Below, one piece after another: positions 2,882 to 15,336 of a stretch of 15,336 bases of DNA. The DNA is from a virus. Location: UHGV virus genome UHGV-1739098; one strand, written 5' to 3'. Below the pieces are notes generated by a model. That model worked only from the letters and a program-made list of their open reading frames with translations. It did no database searches and was not told where the DNA came from. Made by a program: the position numbers and the translations under genes. Position 1 is the stretch's first letter. The number at the start of each line of letters is the position of its first letter.

Positions 2882-3020
2882 GACCTTTCTCCTTCTGCAT
2901 CAGCTTCACTTTTTCCAACTCAGCCCGGAATCGACCAGGCTGCTTGAAGCTGGACAGGAAGCGATCACGTAGTATGTTTTTGTGCATTTTGTCCTGGTAA
3001 GGACTGAGTGGTTTTGTCAT
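2874..3020 (-). CDS. Hypothetical 48-aa protein, translationally coupled between the 134-aa ORF and the initiator gene
   Basis: Its ATG (3020-3018) overlaps the TAA of the upstream ORF as TAATG. Translation [48 protein letters not shown]. Its 3-prime end overlaps the initiator start. Not in the ORF track (under 60 aa). Confidence 0.4.
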
Positions 3021-3424
3021 TAAGCCTCCTCTACTTCGTAATCAGCGAAGTAACCGGTAGACATTTTTAAAAACCTTGATTCGGTGACTGTGTAAGCCTT
3101 CCTGCCTTTCCTCTCCTTGCCTTCAGGCTCTATGAGGTGGCACGAATAAATGATTCTGCGCTGCCAGTTGCCTGGCATTTCCACCACTGCCAGAACCTCA
3201 AGAATTCTCTTTCCTTCAGCATCAGCGGTGTAAAAACACTGATCACCATAACCACAATCGGCTGGCTCATAATTTTTGTGACAACCGCCAATCCAGCGCT
3301 CATCGGTATCCACGTTGCCGTCATAAGACTGATAATCTGTGCATACTAAGATAAATGGATATACGGTTTCGAACTTGTCACCGGCCTTTATGCCGGTGTT
3401 TACTTGCTTGGTTTGTCCTGGCAT
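3020..3424 (-). CDS. Hypothetical 134-aa protein inserted between cII and the replication genes
   Basis: ORF-track ORF with a strong AGGAG Shine-Dalgarno. Cys/His-containing ([16 protein letters not shown]). No family recognised. Confidence 0.6.
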
Positions 3425-5855: not shown

Positions 5856-6239
5856 ATGACACGCAGAACTCAGTTCAAAGGCAATTCACGTTCTCGTCGT
5901 CGTGAGCGTTTAAAGGCAAAGGCATTAGCTAACGGCGTACTGGCCCGCGAAGAAGCAATAAGTTCAGAAGTATTACACCGCCCTACTCTAAGCAGATCGC
6001 AGATTCAGGCTAAAGGTACTCACGAAACGCCTGAGCGCATAGAAGACGCTAAGCCAATTAAGTTCATAGCACAGGACGTGATCTGGCAACAGAAAGAATA
6101 CAGACGCAATCTGGAGCGAGCGGCCATTGTGTACGCGAATGAGTTTGGACATAAGCAACCAGAAACTGGTGTATGTCTTCCAAACGTAGCCATTTACTCG
6201 GCAGGCTACCGGAAATCAAAACAACTGACAGCAAGATGA
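5856..6239 (+). CDS. N: N-type transcription antiterminator (P22 gene 24-like)
   Basis: Arginine-rich motif GNSRSRRRERLKAKA near the N-terminus. The C-terminal VAIYSAGYRKSKQLTAR resembles the P22 gp24 C-terminus. GGAGG Shine-Dalgarno. First gene downstream of pL and nutL. Confidence 0.8.
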   Translation: MTRRTQFKGNSRSRRRERLKAKALANGVLAREEAISSEVLHRPTLSRSQIQAKGTHETPERIEDAKPIKFIAQDVIWQQKEYRRNLERAAIVYANEFGHKQPETGVCLPNVAIYSAGYRKSKQLTAR

Positions 6240-7020: not shown

Positions 7021-7115
7021 GCACTGTGTATTCATTCCAACGAGTGAATACACGGAGCAATGTCGCTCGTAACTAAACAGGAGCCGACTTGTTCTGATTA
7101 TTGGAAATCTTCTTT

Positions 7116-7142
7116 GCCCTCCAGTGTGAGGGCATTCTTTTT
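7116..7142 (+). terminator. Candidate intrinsic terminator immediately upstream of the 324-aa gene
   Basis: GCCCTC-cagtgt-GAGGGC stem-loop followed by attcttttt. Confidence 0.5.
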
Positions 7143-7155
7143 GCCTGGAGGAGAT

Positions 7156-8130
7156 ATGAGTAACGCATTGCAAATAAGCATTATTAAAACCGACGCTGGT
7201 AAATGTTTTATCACTGATTGCACAGCAAAGGACGGTTATCACTACCAGTACCATCAATCTAAAATTGCTGATCTCCTATTTGACGGAGTTAAACCCAAAG
7301 CCAGCTTTCACAAAAACTGGTTTGAAATTGAACATTACCCTGAAAAGGTTGAGAGAATTATCTCTGGTGAAAGAATTAATGTTCGCTACGAGCTTAAAGA
7401 TGCTGAACTTGAGAGTAAAAAATACCCTTTGACACTTAGTTACAATGAGCGTGACGCAGTGGACGAGGATATCAGAGGCTCTCTTTATGAATACAAATAC
7501 GATACTGCACCTGATTACACCTCTCCAGTTGATGTTGAATTCACATTAGTATGTGAGGTTGAAAATTTTCGTGACGCACCAGAATTTAATTACTCTGCAA
7601 TTAGGCAGGTTGAGTTCCGGGAGGAGAGGTACGTTGTAAAAAACATAAACGTAAAACACTCTCTTGTTGACTGCATCATAATTCCTGAGCCTTTGCGGGC
7701 TAACAGCCCTTGTGAAATTTCATCAAAAGAAATGTATGACATTGTACGCCAGCACGTAAAAGATAACATCGACAACAAACTGGCTAGAATAACAAGTGAT
7801 TACGCATTTTGCTTTACCGTTAAAAAAATAATACCGCTCCTTAAGCCTCACACATATTCATATCAGGATATTTTTGCCAGAACCAAGAAGCAAAGAGCAA
7901 AGTTGCACTTTAAGACTGACACGGTGAAGGAAATTGAAATTTTCCAAATGACACATGACCAAGAAAATTACAAAGGTTATACGGCGATTAAAGGGTTCAA
8001 AGCCAATAACGAATGGGAGCTAAAGGAAATGATTGATAACTTCCTTACGACGCTTATGGATACCATTCACGCGCCAATAGAGCAATGCTCATGCTGTGGC
8101 GGTACAGGCTACACGCAAGACATCAAATAG
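7156..8130 (+). CDS. Hypothetical 324-aa protein, AT-rich, insulated by terminators; function unknown
   Basis: Strong GGAGGA Shine-Dalgarno 4-9 nt before the ATG at 7156. The ORF track's upstream extension to 7060 runs through the terminator and is unlikely. Ends with a CSCCGGTGY motif. No recognisable catalytic motif. Confidence 0.6.
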   Translation: MSNALQISIIKTDAGKCFITDCTAKDGYHYQYHQSKIADLLFDGVKPKASFHKNWFEIEHYPEKVERIISGERINVRYELKDAELESKKYPLTLSYNERDAVDEDIRGSLYEYKYDTAPDYTSPVDVEFTLVCEVENFRDAPEFNYSAIRQVEFREERYVVKNINVKHSLVDCIIIPEPLRANSPCEISSKEMYDIVRQHVKDNIDNKLARITSDYAFCFTVKKIIPLLKPHTYSYQDIFARTKKQRAKLHFKTDTVKEIEIFQMTHDQENYKGYTAIKGFKANNEWELKEMIDNFLTTLMDTIHAPIEQCSCCGGTGYTQDIK

Positions 8131-13223: not shown

Positions 13224-13313
13224 ATGATGTGGCCTATATGTGTTAATTGCGGACGGATGTGCCTATCTGGATGGTGCCGAAAGTGCGACAAATGCACGAA
13301 GAAAAGACAATAA
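13224..13313 (+). CDS. Hypothetical 29-aa four-Cys-pair zinc-ribbon-like peptide
   Basis: AGAGGA Shine-Dalgarno. Translation MMWPICVNCGRMCLSGWCRKCDKCTKKRQ. Confidence 0.3.
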   Translation: MMWPICVNCGRMCLSGWCRKCDKCTKKRQ

Positions 13314-13385
13314 CAATCCTCGCACTCTCGGGGATTTCTTTTATCTGAACTCGCTACGGCGAGTTTTGTTTTATGGAGACAAGAA

Positions 13386-13730
13386 ATGTCAGATTTGGCT
13401 ATGAAGGTTTTGAAATGGCAATCGACTGGCGATGTAGGCATCAGTAGCGCAACTCTTGCCTCAATCGCATGTGGACTGAAAAAGAATATCTATGGTCATA
13501 GCTTCGGCGCTCCACATGACGCAGCCGATTTCCGACGATGCGTTGCACTTGTTGAGCAGATTCCAGAAATCAGAGATTCATTCGACAAGGTTGCAAAGCG
13601 CGTTCCGGCATTCAAAGGCATCCTCAACGAATGGGATTCCCTAGTTGCTCTGTTGAAGTCTGAAATGAAGATACACGGAAACAAAGCACCAGAGACTTAC
13701 AGAAGAATTAGCGAGTTACGCAAGGACTAA
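13386..13730 (+). CDS. Hypothetical 114-aa protein
   Basis: ORF-track ORF followed by a hairpin. Confidence 0.5.
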   Translation: MSDLAMKVLKWQSTGDVGISSATLASIACGLKKNIYGHSFGAPHDAADFRRCVALVEQIPEIRDSFDKVAKRVPAFKGILNEWDSLVALLKSEMKIHGNKAPETYRRISELRKD

Positions 13731-13734
13731 TCAC

Positions 13735-13756
13735 AGCCTCACACTCGATGAGGCCT
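13735..13756 (+). terminator. Candidate terminator or hairpin upstream of xis
   Basis: GCCTCA-cactcga-TGAGGC stem-loop followed by a moderately T-rich stretch. Confidence 0.35.
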
Positions 13757-13819
13757 GTTCATTTCTCAAGATATCCAGACCTACCGCAATAATACCAATC
13801 CAATAAATGGAGATTCCAG

Positions 13820-14167
13820 GTGGAAGAAGAAATCTTCACTCGTGAAGAGGCAGCGTCGTATCTGAAGGTAGACAAAGGCACTATCACGCAGTGGATACGA
13901 AGTGGACGACTTCAGGCCGCAAAGATAAATCCAGATAAACCTAAAAGCCCATATCGCATTTGCAAGTCAGACTGCATTGCGGCGCTTAAGTCTGTGAGAC
14001 ACAATAGCGCGGTGAATGCGGTTGATGTGCAGGAGGTTAAAGCATGTCAATCAAACTACGCGGTGGCACGTGGCACTGCGATTTCGTCGCGCCAGATGGA
14101 TCAAGAATTAGACGCTCTCTTGAAACATCGGACAAAAGGCAAGCGCAAGAACTTCACGATCGTCTGA
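13820..14167 (+). CDS. xis: Excisionase-like HTH protein
   Basis: GTG start after GGAG. The segment FTREEAASYLKVDKGTITQWIRSGRL is typical of excisionase/AlpA-type HTH proteins. Immediately upstream of int, overlapping it by about 124 nt in another frame. Confidence 0.6.
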   Translation: MEEEIFTREEAASYLKVDKGTITQWIRSGRLQAAKINPDKPKSPYRICKSDCIAALKSVRHNSAVNAVDVQEVKACQSNYAVARGTAISSRQMDQELDALLKHRTKGKRKNFTIV

Positions 14168-15204
14168 AAGCAGAAGCGTGGAGAGTAAAAAATCTCGGGG
14201 AATCACCGAAAAAGCTATTCAAGGAAGCCTGCATACGGTGGCTGCGTGAGAAATCGGATAAGAAGTCCATTGATGATGACAAGAGCATTATATCGTTCTG
14301 GATGTTGCACTTCAGAGAAACCATTCTCTCTGACATAACAACAGAAAAAATAATGGAGGCGGTAGACGGGATGGAAAACCGCCGCCATCGCCTGAACTGG
14401 GAAATGAGCCGGGACAGGTGTTTGCGGCTTGGCAAGCCAGTGCCGGAGTATAAACCAAAGCTGGCAAGCAAAGGAACGAAGACGCGGCATCTGGCAATAC
14501 TTCGCGCTATTCTCAATATGGCTGTTGAATGGGGATGGCTTGACAGGGCGCCCAAAATATCAACACCACGCGTTAAGAATGGACGAATCAGATGGCTTAC
14601 AGAGGAGGAATCGAAGCGCCTGTTTGCAGAAATTGCTCCTCATTTCTTCCCTGTGGTCATGTTTGCAATCACGACAGGCCTTCGCCGTTCCAACGTTACA
14701 GACCTTGAGTGGTCACAGGTCGATCTGGATAAGAAAATGGCATGGATGCACCCTGATGAAACAAAAGCTGGCAATGCGATCGGAGTTCCTCTTAACGAAA
14801 CCGCATGCCAGATATTAAGAAAACAGCAGGGGCTCCATAAGAGATGGGTATTTGTCCACACCAAACCTGCCTACCGAAGCGACGGAACAAAAACAGCAGC
14901 GGTAAGGAAGATGAGAACCGACAGCAACAAGGCATGGAAGGGAGCGTTAAAGCGGGCAGGCATTAGCAACTTCCGCTTCCATGACCTGAGGCATACCTGG
15001 GCAAGCTGGCTGGTTCAGTCCGGTGTCTCTCTTCTTGCACTTAAAGAGATGGGAGGATGGGAAACTCTCGAAATGGTTCAAAGATACGCCCACCTTTCAG
15101 CCGGGCATCTCACCGAGCACGCGAGCAAAATCGATGCGATTATAAGTCGCAATGGCACAAATACGGCACAAGAGGAGAACGTGGTTTACTTAAATGTTAG
15201 GTAA
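14044..15204 (+). CDS. int: Tyrosine integrase (P22/lambdoid tRNA-targeting type)
   Basis: C-terminal catalytic motifs HDLRHTWASWLVQSGV and MGGWETLEMVQRYAHL; the N-terminal arm resembles P22-type integrases. Its stop lies 14 nt from the tRNA 3-prime end. Confidence 0.9.
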   Translation: MSIKLRGGTWHCDFVAPDGSRIRRSLETSDKRQAQELHDRLKAEAWRVKNLGESPKKLFKEACIRWLREKSDKKSIDDDKSIISFWMLHFRETILSDITTEKIMEAVDGMENRRHRLNWEMSRDRCLRLGKPVPEYKPKLASKGTKTRHLAILRAILNMAVEWGWLDRAPKISTPRVKNGRIRWLTEEESKRLFAEIAPHFFPVVMFAITTGLRRSNVTDLEWSQVDLDKKMAWMHPDETKAGNAIGVPLNETACQILRKQQGLHKRWVFVHTKPAYRSDGTKTAAVRKMRTDSNKAWKGALKRAGISNFRFHDLRHTWASWLVQSGVSLLALKEMGGWETLEMVQRYAHLSAGHLTEHASKIDAIISRNGTNTAQEENVVYLNVR

Positions 15205-15218
15205 CTTATTGATTTAAA

Positions 15219-15294
15219 TGGTGCCGATAATAGGAGTCGAACCTACGACCTTCGCATTACGAATGCGCTGCTCTACCAACTGAGCTATATCGGC
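15219..15294 (-). tRNA. thrW: tRNA-Thr (anticodon CGU), thrW-like
   Basis: The reverse complement folds as a canonical cloverleaf: acceptor stem GCCGATA/TATCGGC, anticodon loop TTCGTAA (anticodon CGT), T-loop TTCGACT, encoded CCA. Confidence 0.8.
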
Positions 15295-15336
15295 CCTGAA
15301 AGGACATGTTCACGAACGTGAATCACGGTGGACAAG

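Follow-up and report, generated by a model that had tools for sequence, protein, structure and literature searches.

The stretch of DNA analysed here, a window of 15,336 nt from UHGV virus genome UHGV-1739098, carries two overlapping open reading frames, xis and int, which we assign on the evidence given below to a P22-type excisionase and a P22-type tyrosine integrase (Table 1). The int ATG lies at xis frame +2, such that codon position 1 of int coincides with codon position 3 of xis and codon position 3 of int with codon position 2 of xis; the int frame thus lags that of xis by one base. The first-pass annotation, made from the sequence alone, had stated that the xis frame runs about 124 nt past the int ATG at 14044 and that the int start was probably correct. 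The former is exact (14044–14167 measures 124 nt), and the latter was borne out, as every homologue keeps the ATG and an MS(I/L) start and has a Shine-Dalgarno-like site of its own. A GAGG/GGAG motif stands at an equal distance from the int ATG in 20/20 phage loci, and at all loci compared both the int Shine-Dalgarno site and the ATG fall inside xis codons. P22 record X04052 and the APSE-2 annotation both label the equivalent of AGGAGG as the ribosome-binding site of int, and the purine-rich GGAG/GAGG motif on the xis side occupies the equivalent place in most homologues. A programmed frameshift or a Xis-Int fusion was also considered and found no support, since every homologue has a separate start and Shine-Dalgarno site for each of the two ORFs.

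Table 1. Features of the xis–int region, with positions counted along the window.
Feature	Position	Strand	Details	Basis
xis, predicted P22-type excisionase (recombination directionality factor)	13820..14167	+	GTG start, 115 aa	ORF list
int, predicted P22-type tyrosine integrase	14044..15204	+	ATG start, 386 aa	ORF list
Dual-coding stretch, 124 nt	14044..14167	+	Xis residues 76–115 (linker end, predicted helix 90–105, basic tail) and Int residues 1–41 (N-terminal domain start)	
Predicted winged helix-turn-helix DNA-binding domain of Xis	13820..13993	+	Xis residues 1–58	AlphaFold2, Foldseek
Shine-Dalgarno-like GGAG for xis	13809..13812	+	7 nt before GTG	sequence
Shine-Dalgarno AGGAGG for int	14031..14036	+	7 nt before ATG, inside xis codons 71–73	
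xis stop TGA	14165..14167	+	int Leu41 CTG plus first base of Lys42 AAA	
tRNA-Thr (CGU), thrW	15219..15294	-	prophage insertion site, end of int module	ARAGORN

The tRNA-Thr(CGU) gene starts 15 nt past the int stop. In mEp213, attP is annotated as similar to thrW, and in E. coli 536 proA comes after the matching tRNA-Thr. Elsewhere the window holds the early part of a lambdoid prophage, with genes for a DnaB-like helicase, an O-like initiator, cII, a cro-like protein, cI, an N-like antiterminator, RecT and Gam-like proteins, and this gene content makes xis–int the last genes of the leftward operon, bordering the attachment site.

Several further observations concern the surroundings of the two genes. 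When positions 13700–14300 were used as a query, only the first 86 nt (13700–13786) matched HK022, HK97, 434, and Stx phages, at 92–96% identity; this similarity ends shortly before the xis Shine-Dalgarno site, at what resembles a mosaic joint, which would be the left edge of an exchangeable xis–int module. A terminator-like hairpin on the plus strand at 13736–13754 (GCCTCA...TGAGGC with a T-rich tail) directly follows the stop of a 114-aa ORF (13386–13730) and lies about 65 nt before xis. If this hairpin is functional, the N-like protein (5856–6239) would have to act as antiterminator for xis–int to be expressed. Two ORFs elsewhere in the window match only PHROG families of unknown function, namely a plus-strand ORF of 356 aa between the N-like gene and RecT (7060–8130; phrog_20113, E = 5e-154), in a position at which the lambdoid early-left region often carries accessory or exclusion genes, and a minus-strand ORF of 134 aa between cII and the O-like replication gene (3020–3424; phrog_30464, E = 1e-92).

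Protein assignments and predicted structure of Xis

Residues 6–51 of Xis match Pfam HTH_17 (E = 1.4e-8, 35.3 bits against a cut-off of 27), and the protein also matches NCBIfam TIGR01764 “excise” (E = 1.4e-7, 31.8 bits against a cut-off of 28.8). Its alignment to the excisionase family phrog_2907 spans profile positions 2–117 of 117 (E = 1.5e-52), and residues 76–115 alone match positions 78–117 of the same profile (E = 5e-15), a result that we weighted less, as it is tied to the Int N-terminus that these bases also encode. Xis shares 98% identity with the proteins annotated as excisionases in mEp213, HK75, and SfX, and the lambda-Xis family was absent from its Pfam, NCBIfam, and PHROG matches. 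In Int, residues 184–353 match Pfam Phage_integrase (E = 9e-35), and the PHROG match is phrog_1, integrase. Residues R214, K241, H313, R316, W339, and Y348 are invariant in a 13-sequence alignment (A2), and their presumed catalytic roles (R-K-H-R-(H/W)-Y) were assigned by inspection. Judged by sequence, Xis can be classed as a P22-type excisionase by its helix-turn-helix, its full-length similarity including a C-terminal extension of about 55 residues, and its overlap geometry, and Int as a P22-type tyrosine integrase by its catalytic domain, its homology from residue 1, and its insertion at thrW. The excision-directing role of Xis, comprising binding and bending of the att arm, is a putative one taken from the literature on P22 Xis.

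An AlphaFold2 run on a 78-sequence Xis alignment gave a confident winged helix-turn-helix over residues 1–58 (pLDDT about 86–94 over residues 1–60), with predicted helices at 8–15, 19–28, and 49–57 and a strand at 45–48. Residues 59–88 were modelled as a low-confidence linker (pLDDT 45–55 over residues 71–90), followed by a helix of moderate confidence at residues 90–105 (pLDDT about 75) and a Lys/Arg-rich end. Foldseek matched the N-terminal domain to BldC and to the mycobacteriophage Pukovnik Xis 4j2n (TM 0.79, rmsd 1.9 Å, 54 columns). Beyond this domain, sequence and fold searches of the PDB returned only whole-chain alignments of high rmsd (13–17 Å), which were not informative for the tail, and no solved structure in these searches matched Xis residues 60–115.

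Spread of the overlap among relatives

The P22 record X04052 annotates “xis-polypeptide (aa 1-116)” at 296–646 and “int polypeptide (aa 1-387)” at 523–1686, which gives an overlap of 124 nt with separate ribosome-binding sites, and the curated P22 genome BK000583 agrees with this geometry. The annotated overlap is likewise 124 nt in SfV, ES18, ENT47670, SfX, HK75, and mEp213, and it is 145 nt in APSE-2 and Serratia phage BZS1. When the geometry was re-derived from the DNA of 20 phage loci, 13 had an overlap of 124 nt and 7 one of 142–145 nt, with a frame offset of 2 throughout. In a tblastn search with the window Xis, matches to at least 80% of its length came from 173 phage records, the lowest at 33% identity, and homologous Xis proteins of 110–123 aa occur throughout Enterobacterales.

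To avoid selection on Xis, we used an Int alignment to scan one genome per GTDB species and then examined the upstream ORF. Among Int homologues of at least about 35% identity with a placed N-terminus, this ORF crosses the int ATG by 124–157 nt in the matching frame, the sole exception being a Thermodesulfobacteriota MAG (L053) with 64 nt. The sources comprise Kluyvera, Pseudescherichia, Chromobacterium, Atlantibacter, Rahnella, Xenorhabdus, Morganella, Providencia, Pasteurellaceae, Castellaniella, and other Betaproteobacteria. Nine of the 10 most distant upstream ORFs tested match Pfam HTH_17, 4 of them above the Pfam gathering score, and the distant Xis-like ORFs share a similar end (...GG..S....A.EY/L..ALGL.T...K...). 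At 28–31% Int identity, in non-proteobacterial MAGs, many homologues have an overlap of only 1–22 nt, and there are distant Int homologues that align from residue 1 yet lack a long overlap.

Because it is annotated in the P22 record X04052 and recurs in the relatives examined, the long xis–int overlap is already known and is ordinary in the P22-type family. That record was reportedly published in 1986 by Leong et al., in J Mol Biol 189:603, and P22 Xis is said to have been purified by Mattis, Gumport and Gardner in 2008, in J Bacteriol 190:5781. What we add is how deep the conservation runs, through Gamma- and Betaproteobacteria, and a measurement of the dual-frame constraint; a limited literature search found no paper describing such depth of conservation or dual-coding constraint.

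Constraint on the second reading frame

We recoded each Int at random with synonymous codons drawn from its own codon usage and asked whether the xis frame would remain open to its observed stop. At the window locus it did so in 15.5% of recodings, which is not significant for one locus. Across 41 loci the frame stayed open in 9–95% of recodings (P 0.09–0.95; geometric mean per locus 0.33), and the actual xis frame is open in 41/41; these loci are phylogenetically related, so that the combined significance is less than the simple product. The other alternative frame closes after 11–74 nt in 40/41 loci and after 131 nt in the remaining one (L059).

As a second measure, we compared 22 Int genes of at least 50% identity and asked how often residues that are identical also have the same codon. 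This fraction was 0.58 for codons 1–20 and 0.58 for codons 21–40, dropped to 0.38 for codons 41–60, and was 0.33–0.45 in the remaining windows, such that the two windows within the overlap ranked first and second of 18. Synonymous identity was higher in the overlap than in the rest of int in 96% of 211 divergent pairs (pairwise counts that ignore phylogeny). In the Xis frame, amino-acid identity over the overlap was 0.45 against 0.27 expected from Int constraint alone (again pairwise, ignoring phylogeny), and it exceeded the 97.5th percentile of the Int-only null in 69% of pairs. Raised synonymous conservation could stem in part from translation-start constraints or from more recent exchange of this segment between phages.

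The position of the xis stop also follows a pattern. In the 124-nt group it is formed by Leu/Met41 (CTG/CTA/TTA/ATG) together with a Lys AAR codon in 16/16 loci. In a 145-nt subgroup (L006, L011, L014, L015, L027, and L059), Int residue 41 is Arg (CGA) rather than Leu, which removes the usual xis stop, and in 6/6 loci the stop instead draws on Int codon 48, which is ATA or GTA. ATA, a rare Ile codon in enterobacteria, is used in 4 of these 6. Over int codons 42–48, synonymous identity was 0.45 in the 145-nt group vs 0.41 in the 124-nt group, a small difference that involves 6 loci only. A single substitution, C14052A, would be a nonsense change in xis (Ser78 TCA to TAA) yet silent in int (Ile3 ATC to ATA).

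Taking together the open-frame, synonymous-site, Xis-frame identity, profile-match, and stop-codon results, we favour the view that the Xis tail is translated and selected in its own right.

Alternative explanations

One could suppose that the true xis ends near the int ATG, as it does in lambda, and that a sequencing or assembly error or a recent frameshift has fused an int-internal frame to it by an indel. All that speaks for this is that the length is unusual compared with lambda, in which the overlap is 23 nt, and it is only in this comparison that the phrase “unusually long” in the first-pass annotation holds. Within the P22-type int family 124 nt is the rule, and the P22-like junctions that we compared show an overlap equal to that of the window in P22 and its relatives, such that its description as an anomaly does not stand. 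The 161 nt around the overlap are free of gaps and 159/161 identical when set against the E. coli 536 chromosome, mEp213, HK75, and SfX. Of the two substitutions, one leaves Int unchanged and alters Xis residue 87 (Ala/Val), and the other leaves Xis unchanged and alters Int residue 22 (Ile/Val). All four records annotate a 348-nt xis overlapping int to the same extent, at least 80% of window positions 13700–15336 is present in 119 complete E. coli genomes, and the overlap recurs at 33–43% protein identity. As these independent assemblies agree, a read error at the junction appears very unlikely, and we put the chance that an error or recent frameshift accounts for the overlap at practically nil. 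The first-pass annotation had left the choice between such an error and a long Xis extension encoded inside int; it is the latter that agrees with the end-to-end match of all 115 aa to the PHROG excisionase profile, and of the last 40 aa on their own, with the 110–123 aa of the enterobacterial homologues, and with the suppression of synonymous change in int over the overlap. An extension of this kind could still be a functionless read-through, in which the working Xis would be the winged-helix part of about 60–75 residues, translation would simply run on into int to the first chance stop, and the conservation of the tail would echo the Int N-terminus encoded on the same bases. This would fit the share of recodings in which the frame stays open given the Int sequence, the predicted disorder of the linker, and the observation that several of the distant loci match the Xis profile in its C-terminal half alone, which is what an echo of Int should produce. 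It is harder to reconcile with a frame that is open at every one of the 41 loci while the other alternative frame closes early at 40, with int synonymous conservation that falls to background in the very 20-codon window holding the xis stop, with Xis-frame identity beyond the Int-only null in most pairs, and with a stop fixed at two alternative sites through particular codon choices, the rare ATA among them. We regard functionless read-through as quite improbable.

Selection might also act on expression, with the peptide of the tail being secondary: an int start and Shine-Dalgarno site placed inside xis would couple or occlude Int translation and so set the Xis:Int ratio after induction. The location of both signals within xis codons at all loci accords with this, as does the fact that the Xis:Int ratio of lambda is known to be regulated (PMC2951348). 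In a simple scan of 13300–15336 we found no sigma-70-like site, inside xis or upstream of int, that could serve as an internal promoter giving int without xis (compare lambda pI), which is consistent with co-transcription; a similar scan for a cII-type motif (TTGC-N6-TTGC / TTGC-N6-TTGY) found none in or near xis. A short overlap would suffice for coupling, however, and control of expression leaves unexplained the conserved length of 124 or 145 nt, the suppression of synonymous change over 40 codons, and the predicted helix near the end of the tail. We consider it unlikely that expression control is the main explanation, while noting that it is compatible with a selected tail.

Discussion

Our analysis makes it highly probable that the overlap is simply how xis and int normally join in a P22/SfX-type integration module, here that of a lambdoid prophage at thrW, with both frames under selection. 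The arrangement resembles that of P22 in the order of xis and int, the 124-nt overlap, the equal relative frame, the separate ribosome-binding site of each gene, and the insertion at tRNA-Thr thrW. The proteins are of nearly the same size (Xis of 115 aa in the window and 116 in P22; Int of 386 and 387), and both Xis proteins have the C-terminal pattern C-x-S...GT..S....EL..LL..RTKGK. The two systems differ in that Xis is only 42% identical (residues 1–112, tblastn) and Int 54% (residues 1–379), that xis starts with GTG in the window and with ATG in P22, that the window phage seems to have E. coli as its host (99% identity to the closest complete genomes) rather than Salmonella, and that its backbone is lambda/HK97-like rather than that of a P22-like podovirus. 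SfX, HK75, mEp213, mEp043, HK542, HK446, and mEpX2 carry an essentially identical module (Xis 97–99% identical; DNA of 13700–14300 96–98% identical). In modules of the SfX/HK75/mEp213 type, xis is 348 nt long, the overlap is 124 nt, and attachment is at thrW, as in the window. Int is 99% identical to that of mEp213/HK75, and the modules of SfX and the coliphages differ from that of the window by few substitutions, for example Xis A87V and Int I22V.

Lambda shares with the window the order and orientation of xis and int, an int start inside xis, a small winged-helix Xis with a flexible C-terminal tail, and the placement of both genes at the end of the leftward early operon, adjoining att. In addition to its shorter overlap, lambda differs in having an Xis of 72 aa, and the window Xis belongs to HTH_17 / “excise” / phrog_2907, outside the lambda Xis sequence family. 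By analogy, the window Xis may work like that of lambda though it is not of the same sequence family. Pukovnik Xis (4j2n) and BldC (6ama/6amk) superpose on its N-terminal 54–58 residues (TM 0.73–0.81, normalised to the target) and match it weakly in sequence (E = 0.0024); at 55–72 residues, they lack anything equivalent to the 55-residue C-terminal extension.

As a mechanism, we propose that Xis residues 1–58, the winged helix-turn-helix, would bind and bend the attachment-site arm, and that the C-terminal extension of about 55 residues would consist of a flexible linker, a helix at residues 90–105, and a Lys/Arg-rich tail. The last 40 residues of Xis are encoded in a second frame over the first 41 int codons, and Int would be translated independently from its own strong AGGAGG inside xis. 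By analogy with lambda Xis, the extension may contact Int or neighbouring Xis protomers to form a cooperative excisive intasome, and its C-terminal helix and basic tail are obvious candidates for cooperativity with Int or for Xis-Xis contacts. For lambda, the C-terminus of Xis is described as needed for cooperativity with Int and not for DNA binding (Numrych et al., 1992, as cited in PMC2951348). P22 Xis, as summarized in PMC7498355, has been purified, binds and bends att DNA, and may at high concentration inhibit re-integration (Mattis et al., 2008). P22 and ES18 prophages without xis or int cannot excise (PMC8575938).

Because conservation reaches across Gamma- and Betaproteobacteria and the dual-frame constraint could be measured, our comparison suggests that the Int frame is the older one and that the Xis tail was overprinted on it. 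A more specific version, which we offer as possible though doubtful, is that the tail is an ancient overprinted peptide, long kept (among Int homologues down to about 35% identity), whose helix 90–105 and basic end may dock on the Int N-terminal domain. If the tail does dock in this way, the interacting surfaces would share 124 bases and would need to co-evolve nucleotide by nucleotide.

Deposited annotations treat the overlap unevenly. An intact xis ORF with an overlap of 124–145 nt is unannotated in Edno5 (L012), HK639 (L013), the 75/02 Stx phage (L014), ev243 (L015), and Klebsiella phage RAH1 (L017), probably through gene callers that penalise long overlaps; the authors of phage L added xis by hand (PMC8022706). 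In the E. coli 536 RefSeq entry NC_008253, the integrase CDS is given a start 6 nt past the conserved ATG, at ATC (L100:645-651), which looks like an inconsistency of the annotated start site, as the ATG and AGGAGG are intact. Because xis is missing from such annotations, prophages of the P22-type family can wrongly seem to be without an excisionase. The overlap itself holds little discovery value and is of practical value for annotation, and the dual-frame constraint that we measured is a clean, small example of overlapping-gene evolution.
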